From contig CAZBAJ010000005.1 in assembly GCA_964490125.1 (NCBI GenBank), forward strand, positions 4,631 through 68,630: a stretch of DNA of 64,000 nt, given 5' to 3'. A program made the translations under genes and the position numbers. A model generated the notes under the pieces. That model saw nothing but the letters and a program-made list of their open reading frames with translations. It made no database searches and was not told the DNA's origin. Shown one piece after another: positions 5,090 through 48,001 of this stretch. The DNA is from an uncultured Candidatus Saccharibacteria bacterium. Its GTDB lineage: Bacteria > Patescibacteriota > WWE3 > UBA101185 > UBA10185. How positions within the stretch are numbered: position 1 is the first letter of the stretch; each line of letters opens with the position of its first letter.

Positions 5090-5154
5090 GGCATATCTAC
5101 GATTGGTAGACTAGCTCTTTGAATCTCAAAAGTAATATCACAAGGAGAAGTGTC

Positions 5155-18628: not shown

Positions 18629-19819
18629 ATGCTATTTACCATAGGTCGTCCGGTGTCAAAAAGGTTTGTGGAGATGCGCTTTACCAACCTTATCCCATAC
18701 GGACGCAACAAAATTTTAGTCCTCCTAAAAGACCTTGGTCTATTCTTTAGATGGCTGGGCGTGTATTTTGCGCTTAAAATCAAAAAATTCTTCCTTTTAG
18801 TGGGAAAAACCCTAGTTTTAGTCGTCCAAAAAGTCCAGGATCTTAAAAGTTATTTTGTGGCAAAACTTATTTGGTCACGGGGGAGGCTGGGCAGGCCGGT
18901 GGCAAATTTTATCGTCATGCTTTTGGCTTTAAGCGTATTCTTTTTTGGAGAAATTCTTAGCGGGTCAAAATTAGTGGTTAGCAAAGAGGTTGACCCAGAC
19001 TATTTAAAAACGGTTGTGGACATTATTCCGGAAAAAAACATTGCGCTAACCACTATTCCGGAAGAGCGCCAACGGACGCAGTATCTGGCTTACAAAATCG
19101 AGTCGGGCGACACTTTATTTGGCATTGGAAATAAATTTAAGGTTTCTGTTGACGCGTTAAAGTATGTAAATAATTTGTACGACGGATCGGTGCTAAAGGT
19201 TGGGAGTGAAATTGTGATTCCGCCTGCTTCTGGCTTGATTCATAAAGTAGAGGCGGGCGATACACTTGCGTCCATTGCTAAAAAATACTCCGTACCGTCA
19301 CAGGCTATTGCGGACTTTAACTACCTGTTAGAGCCTAATAAATTGGCTTTAGGGACAGAACTTGTTATTCCTGATGCTAAAATTCCTCAACCTGTAGTTT
19401 TGGGTTTGCCTGTTGGACTTGCCACTATTGCCCAAGGTGTTAACGACGCGAGTGCTAAAAAGGGTTGGTGTATGTGGCCTACATCGGTTAGCGTAATTAC
19501 CCAAAACTTTTCTTGGTATCATAATGGTTTGGATATTTCCGGAGGTGGAACGCCCCCAATTTATTCTTGCGCGGGCGGCGTGGTTGTTAGAGCGGGTTGG
19601 GATCCGTTTGGGCTTGGTTTGCATGTTAGAGTCGACCACGGTAACGGTTACGAAACAATCTACGGTCACATGAGTAGACTAGATGTAAGCTACGGCGACA
19701 AAGTCAAAAAGGGCGAAATTGTAGGGATTATGGGTAGTACAGGCAACTCTACAGGTCTGCATGTTCATTTTATGATAAAGTACAACGGGTCGCCACAAGA
19801 TCCTTTAAAGTATATTTAG
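18629..19819 (+). CDS. LysM-domain M23 family peptidoglycan metalloendopeptidase
   Basis: Two LysM repeats (YKIESGDTLFGIG..., HKVEAGDTLASIA...). C-terminal M23 motifs (HNGLDI, GSTGNSTGLHVHF). TM region near the N-terminus. Confidence 0.8.
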   Translation: MLFTIGRPVSKRFVEMRFTNLIPYGRNKILVLLKDLGLFFRWLGVYFALKIKKFFLLVGKTLVLVVQKVQDLKSYFVAKLIWSRGRLGRPVANFIVMLLALSVFFFGEILSGSKLVVSKEVDPDYLKTVVDIIPEKNIALTTIPEERQRTQYLAYKIESGDTLFGIGNKFKVSVDALKYVNNLYDGSVLKVGSEIVIPPASGLIHKVEAGDTLASIAKKYSVPSQAIADFNYLLEPNKLALGTELVIPDAKIPQPVVLGLPVGLATIAQGVNDASAKKGWCMWPTSVSVITQNFSWYHNGLDISGGGTPPIYSCAGGVVVRAGWDPFGLGLHVRVDHGNGYETIYGHMSRLDVSYGDKVKKGEIVGIMGSTGNSTGLHVHFMIKYNGSPQDPLKYI

Positions 19820-21334: not shown

Positions 21335-22051
21335 ATGACAAATGAAGAAATTACTCTCCACGCCTTAGAGTTTGCCAAAAAGAATAAACTCCGCATAGCC
21401 AGAGAATTGACCGATCCAAGTAAATATAAGCCTACAGACCATCCCGTCTCTGTTTTTATGGCAGGTTCTCCTGGGGCGGGTAAGACGGAATTTTCTAAAA
21501 ATCTTGCTAAAGATTTACATAAAGGTGAAGGCATCAATGTTGTTCGGATTGACGGGGATGATTTAAGACCATATATGCCGGGTTATACAGGAAGTAACTC
21601 TCACCTATTCCAGGGTGCCGTTTCTTTAATTGTTGAGAAGATGCAAGATTTAGTATTACATACAGGGCAAAACTTTATTCTGGATGGAACTTTCTCTAGT
21701 TATCGTAAAGCTACCGAAAACATCAATCGCTCCTTGTCTAAGGGCAGGGTTGTTTCAGTTTTTTACTTGTATCAAAGACCTGAAATAGCTTGGAAGTTTA
21801 CCCAGGCGCGTGAAAAAGCAGAAGGTAGAAACATTCCCAAAACAGCCTTTATTAGTCAATTTTCTGAGGCTAGAGAAACAATTGAGAACCTAATTTTGAA
21901 TTATGGTGGTCTTATTAAGATAACTCTTGTGGCTAAAGACTTTGAGAATAAAACAATCGATCTTGTTGAAATTGCGGACAATGCGACAAAAATTGACGGT
22001 GTTACTTTTGCTCGTTATAATGAGCGAGAATTAGAAAGTTTATTAAAATGA
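21335..22051 (+). CDS. zeta-toxin-like P-loop kinase family protein
   Basis: Walker A (FMAGSPGAGKTEF) with the zeta/AAA_33-like layout. ATGA overlap with the next small ORF. Confidence 0.55.
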   Translation: MTNEEITLHALEFAKKNKLRIARELTDPSKYKPTDHPVSVFMAGSPGAGKTEFSKNLAKDLHKGEGINVVRIDGDDLRPYMPGYTGSNSHLFQGAVSLIVEKMQDLVLHTGQNFILDGTFSSYRKATENINRSLSKGRVVSVFYLYQRPEIAWKFTQAREKAEGRNIPKTAFISQFSEARETIENLILNYGGLIKITLVAKDFENKTIDLVEIADNATKIDGVTFARYNERELESLLK

Positions 22052-25421: not shown

Positions 25422-27701
25422 TTATGGTTTTACTGGCTCTACCGGTGCTATAGGTTCGGCTTCACCCGGTTTGGTCAACGGTTCTTGGGGAAGGGGAGCC
25501 ACTTCGGTTGGTTTTCCAGCCCCTTCTATACTTTCCACACTCGGCTTGGTTGCGGTTTGCGCCCCGGCAACTTGAGCAAGCTCCTTATCCACGGTTTCTA
25601 TGTCGCTCAACACTAATTTATAATCCGCACCATCTTTTTCCACCAAAGTCTGTACAATTTCCAGCTCCGCTTTAGCGTCACTGTAAGCTTTAAGTTTATA
25701 CAGCGCGTTGGCAAGATTATATCTGGCGTTTGCATAGTCGCCCTTTAAATTAACCGCCTGTTTAAACAGATTGCCTGCGGAAAGATAATCTTCCTTTGCG
25801 TAGTAAATACCGCCAAGCTCTACCCGCAAAACAGGGTTAGTGGGATCCAGCTGGATAGCTGTGTTGTAAGCTTGGACGGCAAATTGGTCGGCATCCTTGG
25901 CAATAGGAATTAAAAACTTGTAGATTTGCGCCCGAGCAGTCCAGTTGGCAGAATCTAACGGGTTTAAATTCTCCGTGGCAAATCTTATGTTTCTAAGAGC
26001 TTGTGCCAGCAAGTTTTGCGCGGTGGTTTTTTCCTGGTCGGTTAAGTTTTCTTTGGTCGACAAGGATTGGGCAAGCACCAAGTTAGTGTTGGTGTACAGC
26101 CTGTGATATTGCGACCGATTTGGATTAACGGCAATAGCCTTTACTTGGTAGTCGTACGCACTGCTAACATTTTGGTTATTTGCGGCAACAACTGCTTTGC
26201 GAATATATACTTCTGGGGCGTATTGTAAATAACCTTGATATACGCCAAACACTGTCAGAGCCACAATAGGCAAAGCAATAATGTATTGCAAAACTTCTTT
26301 CTTATAAAGGATTCGGCTTTCTACTAAAATACTTTGCTCTTGACTTTGAACCTCCGAACCCAAAGAAATGGTTGTAAGTTTTGCCCACGCTTTGTTAGTG
26401 TTTAGCGTGGCTTCTGCCGTAAGTAGGGCAAGGAGTATAAAGGTTATAGCTACAGCTAAAAAGCTAGTATAGGTTAATAGCATGGCAGAAAGAGATACTA
26501 TAAGTCCGCCGGCAAGCACTACAGAAAGTCCTTTATATGCGTCTTTCACCTTTGTCGTTCTAATTACCAATTTTATGACAACGGCTACAAACATTGCGTA
26601 AACTGCCAGTCCAAAAATCCCCATGGTAGAAAGAATGTTAAAAGCCTCGTTTGCCGGTTTGTCAAAGTTTACATTCCAGGTTGGCGTGGCATTTTGACTT
26701 AATGTCTTGTACCTAGGGTAATTTAGGTAAAAAGTGCTTACACCGGAGCCAAAAATAGGAAAGTCTCTAATGGTTGTTGACGACACGATCCAAGATTCTT
26801 TAATGGACGGTAATACTTCCCGCGGGTAATCGCGCTTAAGTAGGCTACTTGTTTGAGGGACGACAAAATACAACGCGACAAAAGCTATTACCGCGCCTAG
26901 GGTTGGGAGAATGTATATTTTGTTTTTTGCCAGAGTCTCTGCGGACGACATAGCTAGACCAAGTGCCACCACTGCTAAAGCAACAAGAGCAAAAATCGCT
27001 CCGCCAAAGACTGCGACTGCCATAAAGTCAACCAAAAACGCCACTACAAACGCCAGTTTCTTTATAGTCGTCCTAATATTTACTGCTAACAGGGCGCAAA
27101 GGACGGAGCCTATTAACGCCGTTACTGCTAATGTACTGCTGGTGCCGGTAAGCAAGAAGCCTTTTTGGTTAAACAGATTCATAAATGGAATAGTTAGCCC
27201 CGCGTAATTAATAAGACCTAAGAACGAGGGGATAGCTGTGGCACCTGCCAAACCGTATAAAATGGTGCGGATTTTTTTGGTTGAGTCGACATTTGTAGAA
27301 ACCGCATAATAAAAGAAGTACAGCGTTACAAAGCCAAACAGACTAGGAAACCATCTACCGTAGGAACCAAAAAGACTGGCGGTTTTGTCCAGGGAAGTTA
27401 AAGTCGACAAAATAAAACCTACCAAAAGCAGAAGTAATGGAAAGTCTATAGGAGATTTGGCAAAATACACCTTTTTCTCCACCAGCATTTTTGCACACCA
27501 TGTTAATGCAAGTACCGCCGTTATCAGCGCAAAGAAATACAGTTTGTTAAACTCAAAGTACTCGTTAGTTACAGTGAGAAAAAAAACAGGGAGTAAAAAA
27601 GCCACCCCTAAAATTAACCCGAATATTAAATTGTTAAGTGTCTTTTGGACAGTAGTATTTTTCATGACTTTAACAATTACATGTTTACTATAACTTGTCA
27701 A
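25422..27701 (-). CDS. Wzy_C-family (O-antigen ligase-like) polytopic membrane protein with TPR repeats and Pro-rich C-terminal tail
   Basis: About 12 TM helices. C-terminal TPR-like repeats (YAKEDYLSAGNLFKQAVNLKGDYANARYNLANALYKL). PEPxxP tail. Paralogous architecture to 13489-15336. An alternative start is M13 at 27665. Confidence 0.55.
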   Translation of the reverse strand: MTSYSKHVIVKVMKNTTVQKTLNNLIFGLILGVAFLLPVFFLTVTNEYFEFNKLYFFALITAVLALTWCAKMLVEKKVYFAKSPIDFPLLLLLVGFILSTLTSLDKTASLFGSYGRWFPSLFGFVTLYFFYYAVSTNVDSTKKIRTILYGLAGATAIPSFLGLINYAGLTIPFMNLFNQKGFLLTGTSSTLAVTALIGSVLCALLAVNIRTTIKKLAFVVAFLVDFMAVAVFGGAIFALVALAVVALGLAMSSAETLAKNKIYILPTLGAVIAFVALYFVVPQTSSLLKRDYPREVLPSIKESWIVSSTTIRDFPIFGSGVSTFYLNYPRYKTLSQNATPTWNVNFDKPANEAFNILSTMGIFGLAVYAMFVAVVIKLVIRTTKVKDAYKGLSVVLAGGLIVSLSAMLLTYTSFLAVAITFILLALLTAEATLNTNKAWAKLTTISLGSEVQSQEQSILVESRILYKKEVLQYIIALPIVALTVFGVYQGYLQYAPEVYIRKAVVAANNQNVSSAYDYQVKAIAVNPNRSQYHRLYTNTNLVLAQSLSTKENLTDQEKTTAQNLLAQALRNIRFATENLNPLDSANWTARAQIYKFLIPIAKDADQFAVQAYNTAIQLDPTNPVLRVELGGIYYAKEDYLSAGNLFKQAVNLKGDYANARYNLANALYKLKAYSDAKAELEIVQTLVEKDGADYKLVLSDIETVDKELAQVAGAQTATKPSVESIEGAGKPTEVAPLPQEPLTKPGEAEPIAPVEPVKP

Positions 27702-27759: not shown

Positions 27760-28449
27760 TTAATTGGAGATCCACCAGCTAACTTCAGCGTCGGTGGCGG
27801 TTGGGGCATCTAGTTCCAAGTAAAAACCTTCAAAAGGAATTTTTTGGGAGATCCAATATCTGGTAGCCGGTGAAAAGTCAGAGCTAAAAGTTGCGTTAAT
27901 TTTTGAGTCCAGTTTTACTTGGGAGCTTTTTATATACACCTTCTTTTGGTTTTTTAAAATGTAAGTAGTCCCACTGTCCAAAATAAACTTTTTGTCTAAT
28001 TCCAAAGTTCTTTTAATTAGGTCATTTTTGGACTTGCCTATGGGCAAAAAGCCAAAACCCGCAAGAATTACCAGACCAAAAAGAGCCAAAAGCGCAAATT
28101 TAACAGTTTTGGTCGACGGTGTTAAGATCCTTGCCACCTTTATTGTTGAGGCATAGGTTTTTTGATTTTGACTATTTTGATTTATGGTAGAAAGTGACTT
28201 TAGTTTTTGACCGATTTCCTCATTAGAAAGTCCCAAAGCTTTTAATTTTTCTATTTCCAACAGGGTATCCAGCGCGTGTTTTGGATAGTGACCTATAACC
28301 TCGCCATTTATAGTTCTTCTGACCATGTGGGGGAGCAGTCCCAATTTGGTGTAGTAGCGCAACCTATTATAAGGGTCGCCCTTGCCAAACTTAACACCGT
28401 TTTTTACGGCAAGCTCTATTAAAGTGTCCAGCGCTAGTAAGTCGTCCAT
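27760..28449 (-). CDS. hypothetical membrane-anchored protein with N-terminal HTH-like domain
   Basis: The N-terminal 80 aa are helical with a putative HTH (YNRLRYYTKLGLLP). Single TM (ALLALFGLVILAGFGFL). C-terminal extracytoplasmic domain. Confidence 0.4.
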   Translation of the reverse strand: MDDLLALDTLIELAVKNGVKFGKGDPYNRLRYYTKLGLLPHMVRRTINGEVIGHYPKHALDTLLEIEKLKALGLSNEEIGQKLKSLSTINQNSQNQKTYASTIKVARILTPSTKTVKFALLALFGLVILAGFGFLPIGKSKNDLIKRTLELDKKFILDSGTTYILKNQKKVYIKSSQVKLDSKINATFSSDFSPATRYWISQKIPFEGFYLELDAPTATDAEVSWWISN

Positions 28450-28468
28450 TTGTCGCCCGTATTATAAC

Positions 28469-28489
28469 AAATTCTATTCAGATTAGAGA
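28469..28489 (+). promoter_or_regulatory. conserved 21-nt motif AAATTCTATTCAGATTAGAGA upstream of dprA (candidate competence-regulon box)
   Basis: The identical 21-mer occurs at 35024-35044 upstream of comEA. In both cases exactly 42 nt separate the motif end and the start codon. Confidence 0.5.
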
Positions 28490-28531
28490 AGACCGTCTTT
28501 ACAAAATATCTGGTCGACGCAAAATGGCACT

Positions 28532-29500
28532 ATGCTCGAACACCAAACTAGCAACGCCAATCAAGTTAGCCGTGAGTATCAGATCAATCGTGAATGTCCA
28601 GTCAACCACGATTATCAAGTCAATAGAATTACTAGACAGCAAGCTGATTACCCAAAGTTACTAAACAAGGCGCCGGACGCGCCGGATCAGTTGTATTTTT
28701 TGGGCGACTTTAAGCCCGCGATTTTTGATAAGGCTTTAGCTGTGGTGGGCAGTAGGGCTATGACGCTGTATGGTGAGTGGGTGGTTTCTAACATTGTTAG
28801 GGATGTTGCCCAGAGTGGGGTGACTATAGTTTCTGGTTTCATGTACGGGATTGACGCGCTTGCCCATAGAGTTGCCTTAGATGCCGGCGGTATTACGGTT
28901 GCCGTAATGGCAGGCGGGGTGGACTATATTTTTCCCAGTCATCAAGAGGACATGTATTGGGAAATTGCCCAAAAGGGGATGGTGATTTCGGAATTTCATA
29001 AGCCCGACTTTGGCGGAAAGTGGATGTTTGCCAGAAGAAACCGTATTGTAGCGGGTTTGTGTCAAGCTACTTTGGTTGTGGAGGCGGGGCAAAAAAGTGG
29101 CTCTCTTATTACGGCGGGCTTTGCTAAAAAGTATGACAGGCAGATACTTACGGTGCCGGCTAATTTAAATGCACCAAACTCGTTTGGGACTACGCAACTG
29201 CTTAAGGATGGGGCAAAAATGGTTACCTGTGCCGACGATATTTTAAAAGTATATTACGATACTCCAAACAATTACCGACATAAATCTATAAGTGCGGTAA
29301 ATAAGCGGTTAAAGTTAGAGGTAGCCGACGAGGATTCCAGGAGGCTTTTAAGATTTCTTAGTAGGGAGGGGCTTACGGTTGATCAATTGGTTCAAAAGTC
29401 ACGCCTTGCAGTAACAGGAGTCTTGAGATGCATTACGGGTTTAAGTTTAGGAGGTCTTATTGAAGAGCGGGGAGGTAGGTATTATGTTGCTAAAAGTTAA
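28532..29500 (+). CDS. dprA: DNA-processing protein DprA (Smf)
   Basis: Rossmann-like DprA core (LYFLGD..., AVVGSRAMTLYGEW..., SGFMYGIDALAHRVALDAGGITVAVMAGGVD). C-terminal wHTH-like region. Confidence 0.8.
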   Translation: MLEHQTSNANQVSREYQINRECPVNHDYQVNRITRQQADYPKLLNKAPDAPDQLYFLGDFKPAIFDKALAVVGSRAMTLYGEWVVSNIVRDVAQSGVTIVSGFMYGIDALAHRVALDAGGITVAVMAGGVDYIFPSHQEDMYWEIAQKGMVISEFHKPDFGGKWMFARRNRIVAGLCQATLVVEAGQKSGSLITAGFAKKYDRQILTVPANLNAPNSFGTTQLLKDGAKMVTCADDILKVYYDTPNNYRHKSISAVNKRLKLEVADEDSRRLLRFLSREGLTVDQLVQKSRLAVTGVLRCITGLSLGGLIEERGGRYYVAKS

Positions 29501-31073
29501 GTCGGCATATTTTTTTGGAATTGACGCGTTTGATGTTGATGTGGAGGTAAATATTTTGGATAGAAGTATGCCGGGTTTTGAAGTGGTTGGATTGGCGGGT
29601 AGGGAAGTGGAGGAAAGCCGTGAGCGGGTAAAAAACGCGCTTCTTAATACTTTTAAGGAATTTCCTTACAATAAAAAGATTTTGGTTAACCTTGCTCCGG
29701 CGGATGTGCCTAAAGAAGGTTCGTATTACGATTTGCCCATTGCCGCCTGTTTGTTGAGCAGTATGCGGGACATTAATTTTCCCAGCGACTCCGCGTTTTT
29801 TGGCGAGCTTTCTTTGGATGGGAGTGTGCGCAAACTTAAGGGCGCGTACTTGTTTGTGTCGTTTGCAAAGGAGCGATGTTTAAAAAATGTGTTCATTCCA
29901 TTAGCTTGTTACCAAGAGGTCAAAAACATAACAGGGGTAAATATTTACCCAATTTCTACTCTTAACGATTTACTGGACTACGAGACCGCCCGACAAAAGT
30001 TTTTTGAGGCTCATGAGAACAAAAGAAATCAAGTCGGTTTGGAAAATCAACAGACAGTCATCCCTATTTATACAGAAATTTCTACCGGCGGTGTAACATT
30101 GTCAACCGACATAATTGACTTTAGTGATGTGGTAGGGCAGGATGCTGCAAAGCGGGCGTTAGAAATAAGCGCGTGCGGTGGCCACAATTTGTTAATGGAG
30201 GGTAGTCCCGGCAGCGGTAAAACCATGTTGGCAAAAGCGCTTTGCGGCATCCTGCCACAACTTAGTCAACAAGAAGAACACGAGGTTGCAAAAATCTACT
30301 CCGCCTGTGGATTATTTGAATCCAAAATTTTCTCCGGAAAATTCCGCCCGTTCAGAAGTCCACATCATACTATTACATATTCTGGCATGGTGGGTGGGGG
30401 AGCGGTGCCGAGACCTGGAGAAATAAGTTTGGCACACAAGGGTGTTCTGTTTTTAGATGAGCTGTCCGAATTTCAGTCCAACATTTTAGAATGTCTTCGT
30501 CAACCAATAGAAGAAGGTTTTATAACCATTGCTCGGAGCAAGGGGAGTGTGACCATGCCGTGCGATTTTACTCTAGTAGCTTGTACCAATCCTTGTCCGT
30601 GTGGTTATTATGGCGACGAAAAAACGCCCTGTACTTGCAAACCCTGGCAAATCTCTCTGTATTCCAAAAAACTATCCGGGCCAATTTTGGACCGAATTGA
30701 CATGCTTACCCGTGTTTCCAGTCCGCATGATGGTAAGTCAGTTAAAACTGCCCGCTTTTTACAAACCCAAACCAAGACCTCCCACATAATAAAAGAGCGG
30801 GTAGAAGAAGTTCGCCAAATTCAGCGCCAAAGATTTTTAGGTCAGACCACATTGCTAAATGCCCGCATGTCAAACAGTCAAGTCAAACAATACTGCGCGA
30901 TAAATTCAACTAGTCATGACTTATTAGACAACGCAATTGAGCGACTTCATTTATCGCCCAGGGGAGTTTTTAAAATTATTAAAGTTGCCAGAACTATTGC
31001 CGACATGGAGAAAAAGGCGCAGATAACGCCCGCGTGCCTTGCCGAGGCGATACAATACAAAACCATGGGCTAA
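29484..31073 (+). CDS. comM: YifB/ComM family Mg-chelatase-like AAA+ ATPase
   Basis: ATG at 29484 follows GGAGGTAGG. Lon-like N-terminal domain. Walker A (MEGSPGSGKTMLAKAL). Zinc-finger-like CPCGYYGDEKTPCTC. C-terminal ChlI-like domain. Confidence 0.85.
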   Translation: MLLKVKSAYFFGIDAFDVDVEVNILDRSMPGFEVVGLAGREVEESRERVKNALLNTFKEFPYNKKILVNLAPADVPKEGSYYDLPIAACLLSSMRDINFPSDSAFFGELSLDGSVRKLKGAYLFVSFAKERCLKNVFIPLACYQEVKNITGVNIYPISTLNDLLDYETARQKFFEAHENKRNQVGLENQQTVIPIYTEISTGGVTLSTDIIDFSDVVGQDAAKRALEISACGGHNLLMEGSPGSGKTMLAKALCGILPQLSQQEEHEVAKIYSACGLFESKIFSGKFRPFRSPHHTITYSGMVGGGAVPRPGEISLAHKGVLFLDELSEFQSNILECLRQPIEEGFITIARSKGSVTMPCDFTLVACTNPCPCGYYGDEKTPCTCKPWQISLYSKKLSGPILDRIDMLTRVSSPHDGKSVKTARFLQTQTKTSHIIKERVEEVRQIQRQRFLGQTTLLNARMSNSQVKQYCAINSTSHDLLDNAIERLHLSPRGVFKIIKVARTIADMEKKAQITPACLAEAIQYKTMG

Positions 31074-31138
31074 GAAATATACCTCGCAAAATAAATACCC
31101 TGCATCCATAATTTCAACCTTTAACTAGGTAAGGGGTA

Positions 31139-31166
31139 TTGACATTATTTTCTAAAGAGGTATTAT
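31139..31166 (+). promoter_or_regulatory. promoter TTGACA-N16-TATTAT directing a leaderless ArsR-family mRNA
   Basis: TTGACA at 31139-31144 and TATTAT at 31161-31166. The ATG of the regulator at 31174 lies about 7 nt downstream of the -10. Confidence 0.45.
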
Positions 31167-31173
31167 GTTTGTC

Positions 31174-31476
31174 ATGAAGTACAATGTAAATATTTCCAAA
31201 GCAATGTCCGACAAAAACAGGCTTAAAATCCTGGAGATGCTTTCTGCTGGGGAGCAAAAAGTTGGAGTTGTGTCCGATAAGCTTGGGGTGGAGGAGAACT
31301 TAGCTTCTCATCACCTTAGAGTTCTTTCCGGGCTTGGCTTTTTAAAAAGCGACAAGCGCGGTAGAGAAGTCTTCTACAAGCTTAACGCAGCAAAGATAGT
31401 ATCAATGCTGGTGGACCTCCAAAAGAATGCTACCTTTAAGGACATTCTCAAGCAGGCCGTTGCTGAAGCGAAATAA
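31174..31476 (+). CDS. ArsR/SmtB-family transcriptional regulator
   Basis: wHTH (LSDKNRLKILEMLSAGEQKVGVVSDKLGVEENLASHHLRVLSGLGFL). Confidence 0.7.
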   Translation: MKYNVNISKAMSDKNRLKILEMLSAGEQKVGVVSDKLGVEENLASHHLRVLSGLGFLKSDKRGREVFYKLNAAKIVSMLVDLQKNATFKDILKQAVAEAK

Positions 31477-31529
31477 CTAGCGATTAAGTTATCCTAGGAT
31501 GATTTAACCGACGAAAATCCCGCCGAAAG

Positions 31530-32060
31530 GTGGGATTTTTGGTAAAATGGCGACAAATGGGGAAAATTGTACCGTTAAGTAAAATCCCGGCGATTGTAAA
31601 AAAGTGCCAAAGCGGGGGGGGGCGTGTTGGCTTAATAACAGGCTGTTTTGATGTTTTGCATATTGGGCATATTAAGCTTTTTAAGTGGGCAAAAAAGCGG
31701 GTTGATTTATTAATAGTAGGACTAGATTCGGACGGCTAGATTAAGTTGTCCAAAGGCGCAGGTCGTCCCGTATTTACTCAAAAAGTACGACTTGAAGTTA
31801 TTTCCGAGCTTTCTTCCGTGGATTATGCTTTTGGGATCCGTGAGATTTTGGATTTTTCCAGCCCATCGTCAAGCAGTTACTACGCTGCGCTTTCCAAGAA
31901 AATCGCCCCCGACTATTTGATTACGCATTTGGCTAAGGACAGATTTACCGATGACAAAATCAAAAGGGCTAGGGATTTAGGTATCAAGGCGTTGATCCAT
32001 AGGGATCGGGCATCGACATCATCGACGGAGATTATTGGGAGAGTAAAACGCCTGTGGTGA
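31530..32060 (+). pseudogene. nucleotidyltransferase (RfaE-domain-II / cytidylyltransferase-like) interrupted by an in-frame TAG at 31737-31739
   Basis: The two track ORFs 31530-31739 and 31746-32060 are in the same frame and contiguous. The HxGH motif (GCFDVLHIGHIKLF) lies in the first fragment. The second fragment continues the expected ...GLDSDG*IKLSKGAGRPVF... alignment of HldE-C/RfaE-II. TAG is used as a genuine stop elsewhere in the window, for example at the end of obg. Confidence 0.55.
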
Positions 32061-32064
32061 CAGA

Positions 32065-32292
32065 TCACCCATCTATGTTTACTTTATCCGTTGGAATACT
32101 GGGGGAGTGGATGGCGAAGAATTTGGTAGGCGCGAGAAATTCACCGGAAATAACATTATTCACATCCACATGGTCCGTTTTGCGTCTATCGCCTTCTGGT
32201 AGAAAAGATCCTACAAACCAACCACGCGTTGCTTCTGCATCCACATACTTTCCATGAAAATATTTATTGTTTCCGACTTTGGTTGTGTCCAT
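32065..32292 (-). CDS. small hypothetical protein (75 aa)
   Basis: ORF downstream of leuS and co-oriented with it. ATG preceded by AAAGG. No recognisable motif. May be spurious. Confidence 0.25.
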   Translation of the reverse strand: MDTTKVGNNKYFHGKYVDAEATRGWFVGSFLPEGDRRKTDHVDVNNVISGEFLAPTKFFAIHSPSIPTDKVNIDG

Positions 32293-32311
32293 ATTATTTT
32301 AACCTTTCCAG

Positions 32312-34798
32312 CTAAATACTTATACTCACGATTTTACCAGGCACAAAAACAAATTTCTTTATTTCTCCTTGTAGGTGTTTGGCGATTTTCTCGTCCTTAA
32401 GGATTTTTTCCTTTAGGGTTTCTTCTGTGTCTTTTGCATCTGTCACTATTTGTCCTCTAACTCTACCATTTATCATAACTGGAATGGTCGTGGAGGTAGT
32501 TTCATCCTCCGTTTTGTCAAACTCTGGCCATGATTGCCAGTGTACGCTGTTCTTCTTGTCCCATGTAGAAAATCCGTTAATTTCTTGCCACAATTGCTCT
32601 GCCAAAAACGGCATAAATGGGGCAAGTACTTTTATAAAGCCTTTCCAAACCTCTGTGTCAATAGCGTCAACCTTTTTAAGGGCATTTACAAAAATCATAA
32701 TCTCACTAATTGCGGTGTTCATTTTAAGGTTCTCACACATTTCGGTAATATTTTTTACCATTTTGTTGTACGACTTTTTGATAGATGGATCGTCATGCGG
32801 GCGAACTTTGTCCTTAAAGTCATATATTGTCTTAACCAGTCGCCACATAGCTTTAATAGTATTTTCATTCCACGGATAGGTTTCTTCGTATGGTCCTAAA
32901 AAGGCTATGGCAAGTCTGGTGGCATCCGCTCCATAATTGGCGACAAGGTCAGACGGCATGACCACATTACCGTATCTTTTTGACATTTTTTTACCGTCCG
33001 GTCCAAGAAGTAACCCGCCCGTCATCCGCCATTTGTAAGGTTCTGGGGTTGGGACAAGTCCCTGGTCGTACAAAAACCTATGCCAAAAGCGCGAGTAAAG
33101 CAGGTGTACCGTGGTATGTCCACCGTCGCCAAAATATTTGTCAACCGGCAACCAATATTTTAGTTTTTCATAATCCGCAAAAGCGTTATTATTATGTGGG
33201 TCTATATAACGCAAAAAGTACCAGCTGGAGCCTGCCCATGTAGGCATGGTTTGGGTTTCTCGTTTTGCGGGATTGCCTTGCTTGTCTGTGGTATTAACCC
33301 AGTCCGTAAGTTTTGCCAGGGGAGGGGAGCCGTCTTGACCTGGTTTAAAATCTTTGGACGGCGGTAAAACCAACGGAAGTTTTTTTGCTATCTCCTCCGG
33401 ATTTTCCGTTGACGCTATAGCCTCCACACTGCCGTCCTGTTTGTAGACTAGGGGAATAGGTTCGCCCCAGTACCTTTGGCGGGAAAAAATCCAATCACGC
33501 ATTTTGCAGGCTGTGGACTTAGCGCCTTTACCTTCTTTTTCTAATCTGGCGACGGCTTGGTTATAAAACTCTTCCGATTTTATACCGTCGTAGCTTGCGG
33601 AATTTATCATTACGCCGTTTTCTGTGAATAGTTGGTTGGACGACTTATCGTCGGGTTGTACTGGTCTTATGACTTCGATTATCTCAAGGCCGTATTTTTT
33701 GGCGAAATCCATGTCCCTTTCATCGTGCGCTGGAACACCCATGATTGAGCCAGTTGCGTAATCCATCAAAATGTAGTCAGCCACAAAAACGGGGATCTTC
33801 CGCGTGACTTCATCAAAGGGATGCCTAGCATTAAGACCCTCTAGCCTGATTCCGGATTTTTCTTTTTGGGTCTTTCGGTCCATGTCGGAGCGGTCTTTTG
33901 CTTTGTCAACATATAGATTTATTTCATCCTTATTGTTAGAAAGTTGCGCCAGCCTCTTTACCACCGGATGTTCCGGGGCAATGGCCAAAAAAGTTACTCC
34001 AAACAGCGTATCTGGTCTAGTTGTAAAGACTTTAAGTTGGTCAATCTCTGTACCCGATTCGTCGTAAAGTTCAAAAGCAACTTCTGCGCCGTCGCTCTTA
34101 CCTATCCAGTTTCTTTGCGCTGTTTTTATGTAGTCGGGAAAGTCCGTTTCTTCTAGTCCGTCCAGCAATTTTTGGGCATACAGGGGCATTTTTAGCACCC
34201 ACTGTTTGTAAACTTTTCGCTCGACTCTTTTATTGTCGCGTTCCGCCACTTTATAACCGTCTTCACTATTTATTACTTCTTCTTCTGCTAAAATTCCAAG
34301 GCTTTCTGACCACCATACCGAGGTTTCCTTGAATTCTGCCAAGCCGTTTTCGTACAATTTTAAAAAAATCCACTGCGTCCATTTATAATAATCCGGATCG
34401 CAAGTATTTATTTCCCGATTCCAGTCAAAGCTGTAACCCATGTCCTGAAGGGATTTTTTAAAGCTTTGGGAAAGTTCCGCAATTAGATCCTGTGGAGTTT
34501 TGTTTGCTTTTATGGCAAAACCCTCTGTGGGTAGACCAAAAGAGTCCCAGCCCATGGGGTATAAAACATTGTAACCTCGCATTTTAAGATACTTTGCGTA
34601 CATATCCGGCACGGTGTAGCGCATCATGTGACCCGCATGTAGGTAAGGTCCGGAGGGGTAGGGGAGTTCCGCTAAAATATACTTTTTAGGCTTGGGGGAA
34701 AAATCTACTGCCTCGTAAAGATTATCGGCGTACCATTTTTCTTTCCAAGTCGACTCAATTTTTTTATGGTCGTATAAGGTTTTTTTCTCTTGCGACAT
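32312..34798 (-). CDS. leuS: leucyl-tRNA synthetase
   Basis: Class I motifs HAGH (PYPSGPYLHAGHMMRYT) and KMSKR. CP1 editing domain and anticodon-binding C-terminus typical of LeuS. Confidence 0.95.
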   Translation of the reverse strand: MSQEKKTLYDHKKIESTWKEKWYADNLYEAVDFSPKPKKYILAELPYPSGPYLHAGHMMRYTVPDMYAKYLKMRGYNVLYPMGWDSFGLPTEGFAIKANKTPQDLIAELSQSFKKSLQDMGYSFDWNREINTCDPDYYKWTQWIFLKLYENGLAEFKETSVWWSESLGILAEEEVINSEDGYKVAERDNKRVERKVYKQWVLKMPLYAQKLLDGLEETDFPDYIKTAQRNWIGKSDGAEVAFELYDESGTEIDQLKVFTTRPDTLFGVTFLAIAPEHPVVKRLAQLSNNKDEINLYVDKAKDRSDMDRKTQKEKSGIRLEGLNARHPFDEVTRKIPVFVADYILMDYATGSIMGVPAHDERDMDFAKKYGLEIIEVIRPVQPDDKSSNQLFTENGVMINSASYDGIKSEEFYNQAVARLEKEGKGAKSTACKMRDWIFSRQRYWGEPIPLVYKQDGSVEAIASTENPEEIAKKLPLVLPPSKDFKPGQDGSPPLAKLTDWVNTTDKQGNPAKRETQTMPTWAGSSWYFLRYIDPHNNNAFADYEKLKYWLPVDKYFGDGGHTTVHLLYSRFWHRFLYDQGLVPTPEPYKWRMTGGLLLGPDGKKMSKRYGNVVMPSDLVANYGADATRLAIAFLGPYEETYPWNENTIKAMWRLVKTIYDFKDKVRPHDDPSIKKSYNKMVKNITEMCENLKMNTAISEIMIFVNALKKVDAIDTEVWKGFIKVLAPFMPFLAEQLWQEINGFSTWDKKNSVHWQSWPEFDKTEDETTSTTIPVMINGRVRGQIVTDAKDTEETLKEKILKDEKIAKHLQGEIKKFVFVPGKIVSISI

Positions 34799-35023
34799 GG
34801 GAGGATTTTATACTTTTTTGACGATGGGAGCAAGTTGATTCGTGATGTCCTAAGATTTTTTATAGAAGACCGTGGCGGAGATGTTTTGTTTATTACCGCA
34901 GTTGATAGCGCTGTGCGTGTAAAATGCGGTTAATAATGGGGAGAATTAACTCGCTTAAAACGATAGTTTGGATAAGTATCGGTAATAATGCGTTAATCTG
35001 CCAAAATAAGTTGTCGTAACAAT

Positions 35024-35044
35024 AAATTCTATTCAGATTAGAGA
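35024..35044 (+). promoter_or_regulatory. second copy of the 21-nt motif AAATTCTATTCAGATTAGAGA, upstream of comEA
   Basis: Identical to 28469-28489. 42 nt to the comEA ATG. Lies in the leuS/comEA divergent region. Confidence 0.5.
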
Positions 35045-35086
35045 CAACTATCTTGCCAAAAACTAAATCCATGATATTTATAAACC

Positions 35087-35926
35087 ATGTTTGAAGAGCA
35101 GTCGCAAAAATTGTATGACGGATTGACTGATAGGATAAATAACCTATTTGCTAAGAAGCCATTTTTTTCTACTTTGTTGTTATGTGTTTTAGTAAGTTTG
35201 GTGGTTTTTGTAGTAAGCATGGACTATAAAAGTGGCGAGGCAAAAGTGGAGGTTACTATTGCAGACAATGGAGTTAAACAGACTTTGAGCGACGCTACAA
35301 AAGAACCTAAGGAATTTAAGGTTGACTTGGCTGGGGCGGTTAAAAAACCCGGAGTCTATGTTTTGCCTTTGGGAAGTAGGTTGAGCGACCTTATTACCTT
35401 GGGTGGCGGTTTTACCAGCGATGTTTCTGCGTTGTGGGTCAGTAAAAATCTTAATTTGTCACAAAATGTCAGTGACGGGGAAAAAGTCTACATTCCTTTT
35501 GAGTGGGATTTGGCGACTTTGGAGGGGAGTGGGGAGGTGCGGGCTTTAAGTTTGGGCGTTATCCCTGGAACAAAACAGTCAAGTTTGGTGGCAACGGAAT
35601 TAAAAAAGATGGAGGTTTCTGCCGGCACAACTACCACTTCCGGTACAGGTCCATCTAATACTTCAACCGGAAGTACCGGTAATCAGGATGTCCCGGAATC
35701 TTCGTCGTCCAGCTCACCCAGTCCCACACCTACCCCCTCAACAAATAATTTAGTAAATGTAAATACCGCTACAAGTATAGAGATAGACGCCCTGCCGGGA
35801 ATTGGACCTGCTTATGCGGGTAGGATTATAGAAAATCGACCTTACGCGTCCATAGAAGAATTTAAGGAAAAAAGCGGACTTTCTGTAAATTTGGCGACGA
35901 GTTTGCAGGACTTAATTAGCTTTTGA
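35087..35926 (+). CDS. comEA: ComEA-like DNA receptor (helix-hairpin-helix)
   Basis: N-terminal TM. SLBB-like region. Ser/Thr/Pro linker. C-terminal tandem HhH (VNVNTATSIEIDALPGIGPAYAGRIIENRPY). Confidence 0.8.
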   Translation: MFEEQSQKLYDGLTDRINNLFAKKPFFSTLLLCVLVSLVVFVVSMDYKSGEAKVEVTIADNGVKQTLSDATKEPKEFKVDLAGAVKKPGVYVLPLGSRLSDLITLGGGFTSDVSALWVSKNLNLSQNVSDGEKVYIPFEWDLATLEGSGEVRALSLGVIPGTKQSSLVATELKKMEVSAGTTTTSGTGPSNTSTGSTGNQDVPESSSSSSPSPTPTPSTNNLVNVNTATSIEIDALPGIGPAYAGRIIENRPYASIEEFKEKSGLSVNLATSLQDLISF

Positions 35927-37152
35927 CACGCATGCGTAGTAGCGGATTAGTTATTTTGATTTTCTTGGCGGTGTGGCGGGTGGGCGGGTATGTTTCTTGG
36001 AAACCGGCGGTTTTTGCGGAAAAGCTAAGTAACGAGAAGAATAAGAGTTATCAGGCGCCGGTTGACGAATGTGCTACGGGTGACGACACATTGAGTATAG
36101 GTTCTGTTAGAGATGTTGGCGGAATTGAACACAAGGTGGAAAACGACATGATTGCGAGGTTGGGCGGGCTGGGCAGGGGAATTTACTGTGGGTTTAAAAA
36201 GTGGTCGATGGAATTTAAGCAACAAGCATCATATAAAATTCAAGAAGTCCTGCCCAGCCCGCACAGTGAGTTGGTTATGGGCATGGTTTTAGGCGAGGAT
36301 CAGTTCAAACTCGTCCCCACATATAACGACATCTTGAAGAAAGTTGGATTGGTGCATGTGGTTGTGGTTTCCGGCTACAATATTAGTCTGGTATTTACTT
36401 TATTAATGCGGATTTTAGGTTCGCAATACAAGGTAAAAAATCTAGTCATTGGTTTATTTATTACGCTAGTTTATGCGGGTATTTCTGGTTTTGGTATTCC
36501 TGCAGTACGCGCTTGGATCATGGGATCTATTGCGGTTATCTTTAAGTTTTATGGTCGACCAGCGGAGGGTATAGAGGTTCTTATATTTTCAGCTATAGTC
36601 ATACTTATATTAGCACCAAGTCAGTTGTTTTCTGTGAGTTTTATGCTAAGTTTTTTGGCTACACTGGGCGTAATGGTTGTCCCGGAGGCATTAAAAGGTT
36701 TTGTAGGTAAGTTGGGGGTAAAGACCGTACCTACTTATTTGGAAGATTTTAATACTAGTTTAAGCGCCCAGTTAATGGTAAATCCCGTTTTGTCGTACTA
36801 TTTTGGCACTATCAGTTTAGTGTCATTAATAGCAAACCCTTTGGTTTTGTGGGTTGTACCCATCTGTACCGTTTTGGGAGGTTTGCTGGTGGCGGTAGCC
36901 TTTATCAGTCCCCTACTTTCTCAAATTTTGGCATTTATGATGTTTCCTTTTTTGGACTTTTTTGTCAGCTTTTCCGAATTTTTTGCTAAATTTGCTACCG
37001 CTTCTGTTAGTTTGCGGTTTAGTGTTTACGCCGTGTTTGTCTATTACCTTGGACTGTTTATTGCTATAAGGCATTTTACTGTTAAAAACGCTAGGACAGT
37101 TAAACCGATTCTGCCGACTACTCGTGTGATTAGTAAAGGTAGTAGGGCATGA
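35923..37152 (+). CDS. comEC: ComEC/Rec2 DNA-uptake channel, membrane (competence) domain
   Basis: DUF4131-like N-terminus and a polytopic Competence domain (VHVVVVSGYNISLVFTLL...). ATGA overlaps at both ends. Confidence 0.8.
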   Translation: MTRMRSSGLVILIFLAVWRVGGYVSWKPAVFAEKLSNEKNKSYQAPVDECATGDDTLSIGSVRDVGGIEHKVENDMIARLGGLGRGIYCGFKKWSMEFKQQASYKIQEVLPSPHSELVMGMVLGEDQFKLVPTYNDILKKVGLVHVVVVSGYNISLVFTLLMRILGSQYKVKNLVIGLFITLVYAGISGFGIPAVRAWIMGSIAVIFKFYGRPAEGIEVLIFSAIVILILAPSQLFSVSFMLSFLATLGVMVVPEALKGFVGKLGVKTVPTYLEDFNTSLSAQLMVNPVLSYYFGTISLVSLIANPLVLWVVPICTVLGGLLVAVAFISPLLSQILAFMMFPFLDFFVSFSEFFAKFATASVSLRFSVYAVFVYYLGLFIAIRHFTVKNARTVKPILPTTRVISKGSRA

Positions 37153-37886
37153 AGATCCTTCCTTACGGTATTTTTATCGTTTTGTATTATATTTTTAGAG
37201 CGGTTTTTATTATCCCTCAAGAAAACAAGTTCTACATTGCTTTTCTTAATGTCGGTCAGGGAGACGCTTTTGTCATAAATATTCCTACTTACGGGAAGGT
37301 TTTATTGGATACCGGGTTTAATTATCAGGCTAATTACCTGTCTGCTAGACACAGTGTTTTCCCTGTTTGTCAACTAAAGTCAGTCTTTATTACGCATTTT
37401 GATTTTGATCATATAGGCGGTTTGGACAGGGTGGCTAGATACTGTAAAAGTATCCACAGATATGACAATTTATCTACGGGAGATGTTCTTACCTTGGGTG
37501 ACGCCAGATTTAGTGTTCTTAGTCCGCCTACTAAAAACACTACCCACGAAGAAAACGATGATTCTATTGTTGTGTTTCTCCAGCATAGGAATTTTAAGGC
37601 GTTGCTTCCCGGTGATGCCGGAATAGATGTTTTAGAAAAGTTACTTTTGTTAAAGTCGGAGGATTTATTGGGGTTGTCGGATCTGGATGTATACAAAGTT
37701 GCGCATCACGGATCTAAATACAACAACAGTTTTTCTTTTGTCGACCAGTTAAAGCCCAAATACTGCGTAATTTCGGTAGGGAAAAATACCTTCGGTCATC
37801 CGGCACAACAGGTTCTTGACGATCTTAACCGCGCAGGTTGCGTGGTTTTAAGAACCGACCAAGTCGGTACAATAATGCTATACTAA
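37149..37886 (+). CDS. comEC: ComEC C-terminal metallo-beta-lactamase-fold domain, encoded as a separate ORF
   Basis: MBL motifs VGQGDAF, HFDFDHIGG, VAHHGS. Normally fused to the ComEC membrane domain. Here it starts 4 nt inside the upstream stop. Confidence 0.8.
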   Translation: MKILPYGIFIVLYYIFRAVFIIPQENKFYIAFLNVGQGDAFVINIPTYGKVLLDTGFNYQANYLSARHSVFPVCQLKSVFITHFDFDHIGGLDRVARYCKSIHRYDNLSTGDVLTLGDARFSVLSPPTKNTTHEENDDSIVVFLQHRNFKALLPGDAGIDVLEKLLLLKSEDLLGLSDLDVYKVAHHGSKYNNSFSFVDQLKPKYCVISVGKNTFGHPAQQVLDDLNRAGCVVLRTDQVGTIMLY

Positions 37887-42056: not shown

Positions 42057-42431
42057 ATGAAATCCGTCAGGGAACATAAAAGAAACACGGTGGAAGTACT
42101 GACAGAGATGGATCAAGGGCAGGTATTAAACATCAGTCAAGCCCGTCCTATGTTGAGTTCTATTATTTCCAATGTTTCCAATCGGGCGTACCTTGTGGGC
42201 AAAAGGGGAGTACCGAGCATAATTATTATGGACTACTCCCTTGCTAAAAGGTTTGTGCCGGAAAGTTTTATCCAACAGGGCTTTTCCCTTAAACCCGCTG
42301 TAAAAGCTGGCAAAAGATTCGTCAACTTTGTTGAAGATCTACATACTAGGGGAGTTTTAACTACGGGCAAGCATTTAAGAAAAAACATCAGTTTAGCCCA
42401 AAATGTCGACAGGATTGTATATGGCATCTAG
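42057..42431 (+). CDS. Phd/YefM-family antitoxin
   Basis: LNISQARPMLSSIISNVSNRAYLVGKRGVPSIIIMDY matches the Phd/YefM fold. Start chosen at an internal ATG. The stop overlaps the downstream vapC start by 11 nt. Confidence 0.55.
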   Translation: MKSVREHKRNTVEVLTEMDQGQVLNISQARPMLSSIISNVSNRAYLVGKRGVPSIIIMDYSLAKRFVPESFIQQGFSLKPAVKAGKRFVNFVEDLHTRGVLTTGKHLRKNISLAQNVDRIVYGI

Positions 42432-42849
42432 CGGTTTGCTCTTAGATTCCAGTTTTCTCGTCGCCCTTTTTAACAAAGAATATTCTTTACACGAGGATGC
42501 TTTGAAGGCAAGTCATAAATTTTTGACAGAGAGTGACAAGTTATTCATCACAAACCTTATTTTTGTCGAATTTGCTACTGTACTTTCGATGCGGTTGGGT
42601 AAGAGTGGCTTAGAGGAGGCTTTGGGTCAGGATCTTTTATTAAAAGGTGGGTTAGTGGAGCTGTTTGTTAATCAGGAGCTTTACGACGAAGTCAAAAAGA
42701 CTTATTTAAAGGATGTTTTGCATAAGGATATAAGTTTTGTCGACTTAAGTACAGCCCTAGTGGCTAAGAAAATGTCGCTAGATGTAGTGTCGTTTGACAA
42801 GCATTTTAAGGCTTTAGGCAAAAGATACGGATTTAAAGTTTTTCCATAA
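42421..42849 (+). CDS. vapC: PIN-domain toxin VapC
   Basis: LLDSSFLVALF N-terminal motif, conserved acidic residues, SFVD. Confidence 0.7.
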   Translation: MASSGLLLDSSFLVALFNKEYSLHEDALKASHKFLTESDKLFITNLIFVEFATVLSMRLGKSGLEEALGQDLLLKGGLVELFVNQELYDEVKKTYLKDVLHKDISFVDLSTALVAKKMSLDVVSFDKHFKALGKRYGFKVFP

Positions 42850-44699: not shown

Positions 44700-44957
44700 A
44701 TGGATCAATTACTCTCGACTATAACAGCAAAGGGGCAAATAACCATTCCTAAAATATTTAGGGATTCTCTGGCTCTTTCGGAGTCGGACAAGGTGGTTTT
44801 TACCCAACTTGATGAAAAAACACTGGCGGTTAAATCTGCCAGCAGGGATTTTATGGTTCATAGCGGTTCCGTAAAAGCAAAAAAGCCGTTAGAAAGTTCT
44901 AATAAAGTCCAACAAAAAGTTTATAGAAAAATGGCGCGGGAATGGACTACTTTTTAG
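44700..44957 (+). CDS. AbrB/MazE (SpoVT-AbrB) family antitoxin
   Basis: MDQLLSTITAKGQITIPKIFRDSLALSESDKVVF swapped-hairpin motif. The track ORF N-terminus overlaps the tRNA and is not coding. Confidence 0.6.
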   Translation: MDQLLSTITAKGQITIPKIFRDSLALSESDKVVFTQLDEKTLAVKSASRDFMVHSGSVKAKKPLESSNKVQQKVYRKMAREWTTF

Positions 44958-45346
44958 ACACCAACATTTTCCTTAGGTTTTTTGTGGACGAGCCAAAAGC
45001 CCAGCATCAAAAGTGTCAACAACTATTTGAAAAGATTTCTAAAGGCGAGATAACTGCTGTTACTAGTCCGCTAGCCATTTTTGAAGTTATCTGGACGCTC
45101 CAAAGCTACTACGAACTGCCAAAACAAGACATTATCGACAAAGTCTTTGATGTCATTGTTTGTCCATATATTTTAATTGACGGAAAAGAACTACTGCTGA
45201 CCAGTTTGCTGATGTGGCAAGTGAAAAACATTAAGTTTAACGATATTTATCTATACAACTATCTAAAAGCCAAGGGTTTAGGTAAAATATACTCTTACGA
45301 CAAGGATTTTAATAAATTTGCCGACATTTTAAGGCTGGAACCTTAG
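44942..45346 (+). CDS. vapC: PIN-domain toxin VapC
   Basis: FLDTNIFL motif, SYDKDF. Overlaps the antitoxin stop. Confidence 0.75.
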   Translation: MDYFLDTNIFLRFFVDEPKAQHQKCQQLFEKISKGEITAVTSPLAIFEVIWTLQSYYELPKQDIIDKVFDVIVCPYILIDGKELLLTSLLMWQVKNIKFNDIYLYNYLKAKGLGKIYSYDKDFNKFADILRLEP

Positions 45347-47309: not shown

Positions 47310-47549
47310 ATGTCCAACTACACAACAGTAACATTAAGAAAAGAGACTTATAATAAACTTTCCGATTTTACCAGGGAGGTTAGAGCAACAAATTCCGAGG
47401 CTGTAGACAGGTTACTGACTTTTTATTGGAAAGACAGAAAGGAGAAGTCTGACAAAGCCTTGGAGAAGTTTAGAGAAGGCATAAGGGGTTTAGGGATTAA
47501 AAAAAAGCTCAAGAGTTCCGAACTAAATGTTATTAATGCGTATTTATGA
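47310..47549 (+). CDS. ribbon-helix-helix-type antitoxin (VapB-like)
   Basis: MSNYTTVTLRKETYNKLSDF has an N-terminal beta-strand plus helices typical of RHH/CopG. ATGA overlap with the downstream PIN gene. Confidence 0.5.
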   Translation: MSNYTTVTLRKETYNKLSDFTREVRATNSEAVDRLLTFYWKDRKEKSDKALEKFREGIRGLGIKKKLKSSELNVINAYL

Positions 47550-48001
47550 TTTACCTTTTAGATACAAGTGTGTTGGTGAATCTTGTTTTTGCTGACATTA
47601 TAGCCTTAACCGAAGAAGAAAAAGAATCAGTTAGGTTTGCTAATTCACTAGAACCTAGAGAGAGGTGGGTAGCCGATTTCGTTTTGACGGAATTTGCTTT
47701 AGTAGCTCAAAAAGTTTTGCCGTCAAAATTTTTGCTAACCAAAGATCCCGTTGTTTTAAACACATACCTAAGTAGGGAGCTGGAATTTTTTGACGAGTTT
47801 TCTACGATTTTTACTTCTTATGTCCCGGATCATCTGGAGGTCGAGGTTGCTTTGAAAGATTATGTAGAGTACTGGAAGAAGAACAAGTCCAATAGAGCGC
47901 TGTCATTTGTCGACTTGTTTTTACTTTCACTTGCTAAAAAACACGGCGTCGGTTTGCTTACCGTAGACAGAAAGATGTCGACTTATATAAAGCCAAATTA
48001 A
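47546..48001 (+). CDS. vapC: PIN-domain toxin VapC
   Basis: LLDTSVLV, SFVDLF, TVDRK motifs. Confidence 0.7.
   Translation: MIYLLDTSVLVNLVFADIIALTEEEKESVRFANSLEPRERWVADFVLTEFALVAQKVLPSKFLLTKDPVVLNTYLSRELEFFDEFSTIFTSYVPDHLEVEVALKDYVEYWKKNKSNRALSFVDLFLLSLAKKHGVGLLTVDRKMSTYIKPN

Follow-up and report, generated by a model that had tools for sequence, protein, structure and literature searches.

The 64-kb window analysed here (64,000 nucleotides (nt) of contig CAZBAJ010000005.1 from an uncultured Candidatus Saccharibacteria bacterium, to which all coordinates refer) carries two competence operons, dprA-comM and comEA-comEC, and the same 21-nt sequence, AAATTCTATTCAGATTAGAGA, precedes each of them. 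This sequence, proposed in an earlier note as a competence box, is the subject of our analysis. Pfam matches substantiate the assignment of the downstream open reading frames (ORFs), namely DprA (PF02481, 2.8e-65) and ComM (Mg_chelatase) in one operon and ComEA (SLBB and HHH_3 domains) and ComEC in the other, and both copies lie in divergent intergenic regions as described, the first between dprA and a gene for a MerR-like protein, the second between comEA and leuS. Pfam scans of the rest of the window revealed no other competence genes. The features of the locus are:

27760-28449, minus strand: MerR-like gene, 229 amino acids, MerR_1 helix-turn-helix (HTH; Pfam), divergent from dprA
28461-28469, minus strand: extended −10 element of the MerR-like gene, TGTTATAAT, read from the sequence and conserved in relatives with the gene order of the window
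28469-28489, plus strand: 21-mer copy 1, dyad core TCTATTCAGATTAGA at 28473-28487, centre 28480, 52 nt before the dprA ATG
28498-28525, plus strand: predicted σ70-type dprA promoter from the promoter scan, −35 TTTACA (28498-503), 16-nt spacer, −10 CAAAAT (28520-525)
28532-31073, plus strand: dprA-comM operon (Pfam), dprA 28532-29500, comM 29460-31073
31139-31476, plus strand: ArsR/SmtB-family gene including its promoter, 103 amino acids, HTH_5 (Pfam), after comM
31139-31166, plus strand: arsR-like promoter, TTGACA (31139-44), 16 nt, TATTAT (31161-66), conserved in all relatives, no box
35024-35044, plus strand: 21-mer copy 2, dyad core at 35028-35042, centre 35035, 52 nt before the comEA ATG
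35053-35080, plus strand: predicted comEA promoter, read from the sequence, −35 TTGCCA (35053-58), extended −10 TG-a-TATTTA (35072-80)
35087-37886, plus strand: comEA-comEC operon (Pfam), comEA 35087-35926, Competence-domain ORF 35923-37152, metallo-beta-lactamase ORF 37149-37886

The 21-mer occurs exactly twice in the window, both times on the plus strand. A search of the window tolerating up to three mismatches returned no further copy, and the number expected by chance was 0.00 (100 shuffles), which bears out the claim that there is no third copy. On re-reading the sequence, the extended match AACAA(TA)AATTC... around both copies was confirmed, as was the distance of 42 nt between the end of each copy and the ATG of dprA (28532) or comEA (35087). 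The view that the 21-mer itself is the conserved unit has to be narrowed. The two copies in the window do not differ from each other, but relatives keep only about 10 of the 21 positions. In aligned upstream regions of these relatives, the central 7 nt and the flanks differ between species, whereas the arms are constant.

The conserved unit is a dyad of 15-17 base pairs (bp), tTCTAnT-N3-AnTAGAa (in short TCTA-N7-TAGA), whose half-site centres are 11 bp apart, corresponding to one helical turn. Our comparison comprised about 90 related loci of WWE3-like Patescibacteria (1.13 Mb, with about 20 kb inspected per genome). These syntenic loci were gathered via homologues of DprA, of the MerR-like protein (including 80 metagenome loci) and of the ArsR-like protein, and the neighbourhood genes in them were labelled by tblastn. 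Homologues of the DprA protein encoded in the window are from Patescibacteria, and those of the MerR-like and ArsR-like proteins bear names such as 'candidate division WWE3 bacterium'. A look-up of the exact DprA protein gave no record; a protein identical to the ArsR-like one is encoded on a 78-kb NCBI contig. The dyad was found at 80 distinct sites, 46 at dprA and 34 at comEA, with the consensus ttTCTAnTnnnAnTAGA-N10-TTGa-N17-TAnaaT-N6-ATG. The conservation upstream of dprA and comEA orthologues that the earlier note had made a test of its proposal is thus present. Two further loci were found via the ArsR-like protein; the one that was scanned (L129) has both boxes, at 53 and 52 nt.

Position and gene context of the dyad are equally constrained. 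With one mismatch allowed and the start codon required to be 48-57 nt from the centre, 68 DprA and 58 ComEA hits were obtained, and the distance from centre to start codon showed a sharp peak at 52 or 53 nt (55 of the 68 and 43 of the 58 hits, respectively). Exact matches to TCTA-N7-TAGA number 152 in the 1.13 Mb; 101 of them adjoin the start of a labelled neighbourhood gene, almost always dprA, comEA or the MerR-like gene. A position weight matrix (PWM) derived from the 80 sites was applied to 16 neighbouring gene families. The fraction of loci scoring at least 12 near the gene start was 0.86 for DprA, 0.71 for ComEA and 0.74 for the MerR-like gene, and did not exceed 0.12 for the 13 other families (8% for arsR). 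The value for the MerR-like gene reflects the intergenic region that it has in common with dprA. The box is conserved even where the neighbouring MerR-like protein is only 37-40% identical.

A strict pattern that included the −35 region, and was probably too strict, was searched in 596 Gb of genomes and gave 29 hits. Two of these were promoters of dprA orthologues and the other 27 seemed to be chance matches; the six hits that looked most plausible were read, and four of them were due to chance. In viral contigs the same pattern had six hits, all by chance. The idea that the motif belongs to a dispersed repeat, considered in the earlier note, does not hold, given two copies in 64 kb, no dispersed copies in the 596-Gb scan and a concentration of the box at dprA and comEA. 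Together, the conserved sites, the restriction seen with the PWM and the genome scan show that the box is neither a chance match nor a dispersed repeat.

Several features of the sites fit a trans-acting factor shared by the two operons. In two loci (L046 and L055) both sites share the variant TCTA..TGGA. The window, L009 and L049 each have the same N7 spacer at both sites, and overall the spacers of the two sites agree at 3.9 of 7 positions within a genome and at 2.8 of 7 between genomes; as related genomes were counted repeatedly, this likeness is only suggestive of a common factor. Complementarity of the inner positions 5-11 and 7-9 slightly exceeds expectation (p about 0.01), as would suit a symmetric dimer whose preferences differ between lineages.

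In one sub-clade, the box is also found before a gene for a LysM-M23 peptidase, a peptidoglycan hydrolase (L091:6813-6827, L092:16091-16105 and L123:15967-15981), in the layout box-N10-(−35)-N17-TATAAT-N8-ATG. The orthologue in the window (18629-19819) has no box, and the additional site looks like a regulon gain judging from the sequences compared. Other matches were discarded. Dyads inside coding regions, at the N-terminus of the MerR-like protein ('NLISIE', 'LLIEK'), at the 5′ end of comM and in the ndk stop region of L060, are explained by conserved codons. A third exact TCTA-N7-TAGA in the window, TCTACGATTGGTAGA at 5096-5110, differs in architecture and was rejected as a regulon site. 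The ATG (5155) that follows at a distance of 52 nt belongs to a gene for a secreted Thr/Pro-rich protein of 337 amino acids; a perfect TATAAT (5083-88) is found upstream of the dyad and a GGAG ribosome-binding site downstream. As the TATAAT precedes it, this dyad would be part of the 5′ end of the mRNA; we regard it as a probable chance match and possibly a repressor site.

The constant distance to the start codon is explained by promoter architecture. After the dyad come 10 nt, a conserved TTGa as −35 element, a spacer of 16-17 nt, a TAnaaT-like −10 element, 6 nt and the start codon. The promoter scan arrived independently at the dprA promoter, whose layout is kept in the 46 dprA sites. The comEA promoter was not called by this simple scan; position 6 of its hexamer is A. 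Its extended −10, TGnTATTTA, is conserved in relatives. In both genes, the A of the ATG (28532 and 35087) is the 7th nt after the −10 element, and the dprA and comEA mRNAs are therefore predicted to be leaderless, with transcription presumably starting at the start codon. Upstream sequences contain an AGGAGG ribosome-binding site for comM and none for dprA. Counted from the predicted start, the dyad would be centred at about −52 and the box would end 10 bp before the −35 element. Thus, the 42 nt are constant because the box is fixed to the −35 element and the −10 element is fixed to the ATG.

Both regulatory genes next to the operons have promoters of their own. For the MerR-like gene, the extended −10 implies a start site about 26 nt downstream of the dyad centre. 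The arsR-like promoter, which reads TTGAAA-N17-TGtTATATT-6-ATG in distant relatives, contains in many lineages a different palindrome, CAACA-N5-TGTTG, in its spacer. Since the annotated ATG of the arsR-like gene (31165) overlaps the −10 element, translation probably begins at the second ATG (31174), which would make this mRNA leaderless as well.

The genes leuS (start 34798, minus strand), argS (37891), 43081, 52793 and 62133 (start 62783, minus strand) likewise have a −10-like hexamer at a distance of exactly 12 nt from the start codon and lack a Shine-Dalgarno sequence. Such hexamers are common at operon-leading genes, while the internal genes comM (29460), 45355 and 57335 have AGGAGG-like sites. 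This distribution suggests widespread leaderless transcription in the source genome.

The gene neighbourhood of the box is conserved through several arrangements. In the window type, the MerR-like gene is divergent from dprA, comM and arsR, and leuS further along is divergent from comEA and comEC; in the contiguous type, dprA, comM, arsR, comEA and comEC follow one another with the MerR-like gene divergent from dprA. In other loci the MerR-like gene is divergent from arsR or located after rho, and dprA is elsewhere. The order comEA-comEC-argS is kept in all long related loci, and in the window argS starts at 37891 directly after the comEC ORFs. ComEC is encoded by two ORFs with overlapping stop and start codons, a membrane part with the Competence domain (409 amino acids) and a metallo-beta-lactamase (Lactamase_B) part (245 amino acids), and nearly all related loci of sufficient length show the same split. 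In nearly all loci, the MerR-like gene is followed by a gene for a membrane protein of 740-800 amino acids with TPR and Wzy_C (O-antigen-ligase-like) domains (25422-27701, minus strand, in the window); the two proteins could form a surface-glycan-related module.

Upstream of the box, the comEA promoter region contains a further element, made up of direct repeats of TGCG(G/T)TAA that share an orientation, are usually paired with a period of 11 bp and are located 70-250 nt upstream of comEA. In the window, the repeats extend over 34893-34999, with TGCGTTAA at 34989-96 preceded by tCGGTAAtaa (34979-88), TGCGGTTAA at 34925-33, TGCGTGTAA at 34914-22 and TGCGGTAA on the minus strand at 34893-900. 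Of 37 distinct comEA upstream regions, 27 contain TGCGTTAA and 21 contain TGCGGTAA. TGCG(G/T)TAA occurs 167 times in the 1.13 Mb; the 400 nt preceding comEA account for 88 of these occurrences, of which 83 are in gene orientation. Across the window as a whole the motif is not enriched. The arrangement suggests that a second factor may bind here in tandem. A tandem element in the same orientation, TGCGGTAAATAAGCGGTTAAA, is found inside the 3′ part of dprA (29293-29313), about 150 nt before comM, where it provides the codons for AVNKRL. In the sub-clade of the window it is kept at the nucleotide level even where the flanking peptide differs, and it may be an internal regulatory site or merely conserved codons.

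Taken as a whole, the box is very probably a transcription-factor operator that co-regulates both competence operons. The earlier proposal of a dedicated competence regulon element is supported in that the element stands before both operons; the unit is a dyad that resembles a transcription-factor operator, as CRP-S sites do, and not a sigma box. We envisage that a dimeric winged-helix factor binds the operators of dprA and comEA, each placed one fixed 10-bp step upstream of the −35 element of an ordinary σ70-type, leaderless promoter. The shared operator would couple expression of DNA uptake (comEA-comEC) to that of DNA processing (dprA-comM), implying that competence is regulated in this lineage.

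Which protein reads the box can be narrowed to two neighbours, of which the MerR-like protein is, in our estimation, rather the more probable reader. It consists of an N-terminal winged HTH, a transmembrane helix (about residues 112-130) and a C-terminal beta-sandwich. The family is small, with about 160 clusters at 90% identity. Its invariant residues are in the region GDPYNRLRYYTK..LPHM.RK...GHYP, and the transmembrane helix and the C-terminal domain are conserved as well. In the AlphaFold model (predicted local distance difference test score (pLDDT) 85.6), the recognition helix starts at residue 25 and there is no coiled coil. In structural superpositions, TnrA and GlnR come closest to the modelled DNA-binding domain; by sequence, MerR proteins among the solved structures were matched weakly. 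Comparison of the modelled beta-sandwich points to a resemblance to receptor-binding domains of phage tailspikes and to Helix pomatia agglutinin. We favour this protein as binder and activator because of its TnrA/GlnR-type fold, the 5-N7-5 geometry of the box and the position just upstream of the −35 element. Encoded divergently from dprA, it would activate from this position, with its outward-facing lectin-like domain supplying the signal. Sensing of an extracellular glycan, e.g. on the surface of a host or neighbouring cell, that directly switches on both operons and, in some lineages, a cell-wall hydrolase is a more speculative extension that we hold to be doubtful. If it is correct, competence would be contact-induced rather than constitutive in these small-genome and probably host-dependent bacteria.

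A number of observations weigh against this preference. The −35 hexamers are good, with a well conserved TTGa, which is more typical of repressed than of activator-dependent promoters. A membrane-tethered DNA-binding domain would have to reach two loci 6.5 kb apart. The promoter of the MerR-like gene mostly lacks the box where the gene is not beside dprA, so that autoregulation is not a conserved feature. The slight excess of complementarity at positions 5-11 and 7-9 leaves room for a structural role of the DNA. Finally, the arsR-like gene is just as tightly linked, being located between or beside both box operons in all loci of sufficient length, and ArsR proteins, too, are dimers binding inverted repeats. 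The recognition helices of both candidates are invariant, even in L046 with its variant box; co-variation with box variants consequently gives no pointer to the binder.

The same operator might accordingly be bound by the ArsR/SmtB-family protein, which would be made constitutively from its own strong promoter, repressing both operons until a signal or sequestration relieves them, a reading that we consider possible though on the unlikely side. Good −35 elements at the target promoters are expected under such repression. The protein is extremely conserved (78% mean column identity, recognition helix EENLASHHLRVL invariant), its closest solved relatives are CzrA, SmtB, NmtR and HlyU, and its gene has a consensus promoter of its own without a box. 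Operators of this family are imperfect inverted repeats, e.g. of 12-2-12 type, that overlap the regulated promoter, in most cases the one of the regulator's own operon; the box is an inverted repeat, and arsR is located downstream of dprA-comM, but the box lies outside the core promoter. Ending 10 bp before the −35 element and overlapping neither a hexamer nor the start, it would be unusual for a simple repressor, and the strict phasing of 52-53 nt suggests contact with RNA polymerase. Moreover, the ArsR-like protein is devoid of Cys or His sensor residues and the CAACA-N5-TGTTG palindrome in its own promoter hints at a different specificity. Less probable still is an unlinked factor, with the two neighbouring regulators serving other roles, e.g. 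at the TGCGkTAA repeats. The existence of this second, comEA-specific element implies at least two DNA-binding activities at the locus, and the survey covered only about 20 kb per genome. Yet both regulator genes keep tight synteny with the box promoters through several rearrangements, which is hard to explain if neither of them reads the box. A lineage with only one of the two regulators was not found among the loci compared, and both loci retrieved via the ArsR-like protein again carried both genes.

That the box is not an operator at all, but an alternative-sigma element resembling the cin-box, an RNA or DNA hairpin or the remnant of a mobile or dispersed repeat, is highly improbable. The cin-box analogy had been drawn in the earlier note, the TCTA and TAGA arms can pair, and the inner positions show the slight complementarity excess described above. 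An alternative-sigma box is ruled out by ordinary σ70-type −35 and −10 hexamers with 16-17 nt spacing downstream of the box and by the dyad symmetry, its symmetric arms being only 7 nt apart, unlike −35/−10 pairs. A stable hairpin is equally ruled out, as the folding energy of −1.5 kcal/mol is at the level of shuffled sequences (z = +0.3 and +0.7) and the element precedes the predicted start. The box had no match in Rfam; only five tRNAs in the window reached the gathering score.

The box is a competence box in kind, like CRP-S sites, the cin-box and ComK boxes, none of which shares its sequence, geometry or position. CRP-S sites, controlled by Sxy/TfoX in Pasteurellaceae, Vibrionaceae and Enterobacteriaceae, are likewise palindromes; they precede the promoters of uptake genes, dprA and comEA among them, and define a competence regulon. 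They are 22 bp long with TGCGA-N6-TCGCA arms and are read by CRP together with Sxy. In contrast, the box has TCTA-N7-TAGA arms with a different spacing and occurs in an unrelated phylum, and neither a CRP nor a TfoX gene was seen near the box operons. The ComX/σX cin-box (com-box) of streptococci is also short and conserved and keeps a constant spacing to late competence operons, among them homologues of dprA and comEA/EC. Located in the −10 region, the cin-box, TACGAATA, is recognised by an alternative sigma factor, whereas the box described here is a dyad centred at −52 with an ordinary −35/−10 promoter downstream.

By geometry and position, the closest known system is that of the TnrA/GlnR boxes of Bacillus. 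TnrA and GlnR bind a 17-bp dyad, TGTNA-N7-TNACA, at normally spaced promoters, and TnrA recruits RNA polymerase; both proteins are defined by an N-terminal extension and the lack of a coiled coil (PMC4335299). The box has the same 17-bp inverted repeat of 5-N7-5 geometry (tTCTA-N7-TAGAa), and it is located just upstream of the −35 element of an optimally spaced promoter. Activation sites of TnrA are centred near −49 to −51. A canonical MerR operator, residing within a spacer of 19-20 bp, is ruled out because the spacers measure 16-17 nt and the box is upstream of the −35 element. Like TnrA and GlnR, the modelled MerR-like protein combines a MerR-type winged HTH with an additional segment at the N-terminus and lacks the C-terminal coiled coil. 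The half-site TTCTA differs from TGTNA, so in sequence the element is not a TnrA/GlnR box. Instead of the glutamine synthetase-sensing tail, the MerR-like protein has a transmembrane helix and an extracellular beta-sandwich, and the targets of its putative binding are competence and not nitrogen genes. If it is the binder, an inner-membrane protein with an external sensor would bind the promoter directly, in the manner of chitin-induced competence and of the membrane-bound one-component activators of competence or virulence TfoS, ChiS and ToxR of V. cholerae. These are non-homologous proteins with AraC or OmpR folds, in contrast to the MerR/TnrA type proposed to act here.

Natural competence of Saccharibacteria has been demonstrated and used for genetic manipulation; the passages of that report consulted here contain nothing on its regulation (PMC10633639). 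A full-text keyword search of the literature found no description of a competence regulatory motif in Patescibacteria. With a concrete box sequence, a leaderless promoter model and two candidate regulators, our analysis offers a first handle on the control of competence in these uncultured bacteria, and the box and the candidate regulators can be tested in vitro without culturing the organism. Binding of the box by the membrane-anchored regulator would link DNA uptake to an external cue, which bears on the acquisition of DNA and nucleotides from hosts.

Elsewhere in the window, a second MerR/HTH_17-type protein of 294 amino acids is encoded at 51840-52776, with a TTGACA in the upstream region. 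Its gene precedes a glycogen-metabolism cluster comprising two starch synthases, two GH57 enzymes and a GalT-like gene. The 64 kb also contain a zeta-toxin gene (21335-22051) and four PIN-domain (VapC-like) genes (10210-10641, 42403-42849, 44942-45346 and 47546-48001), several of which adjoin tRNA genes.

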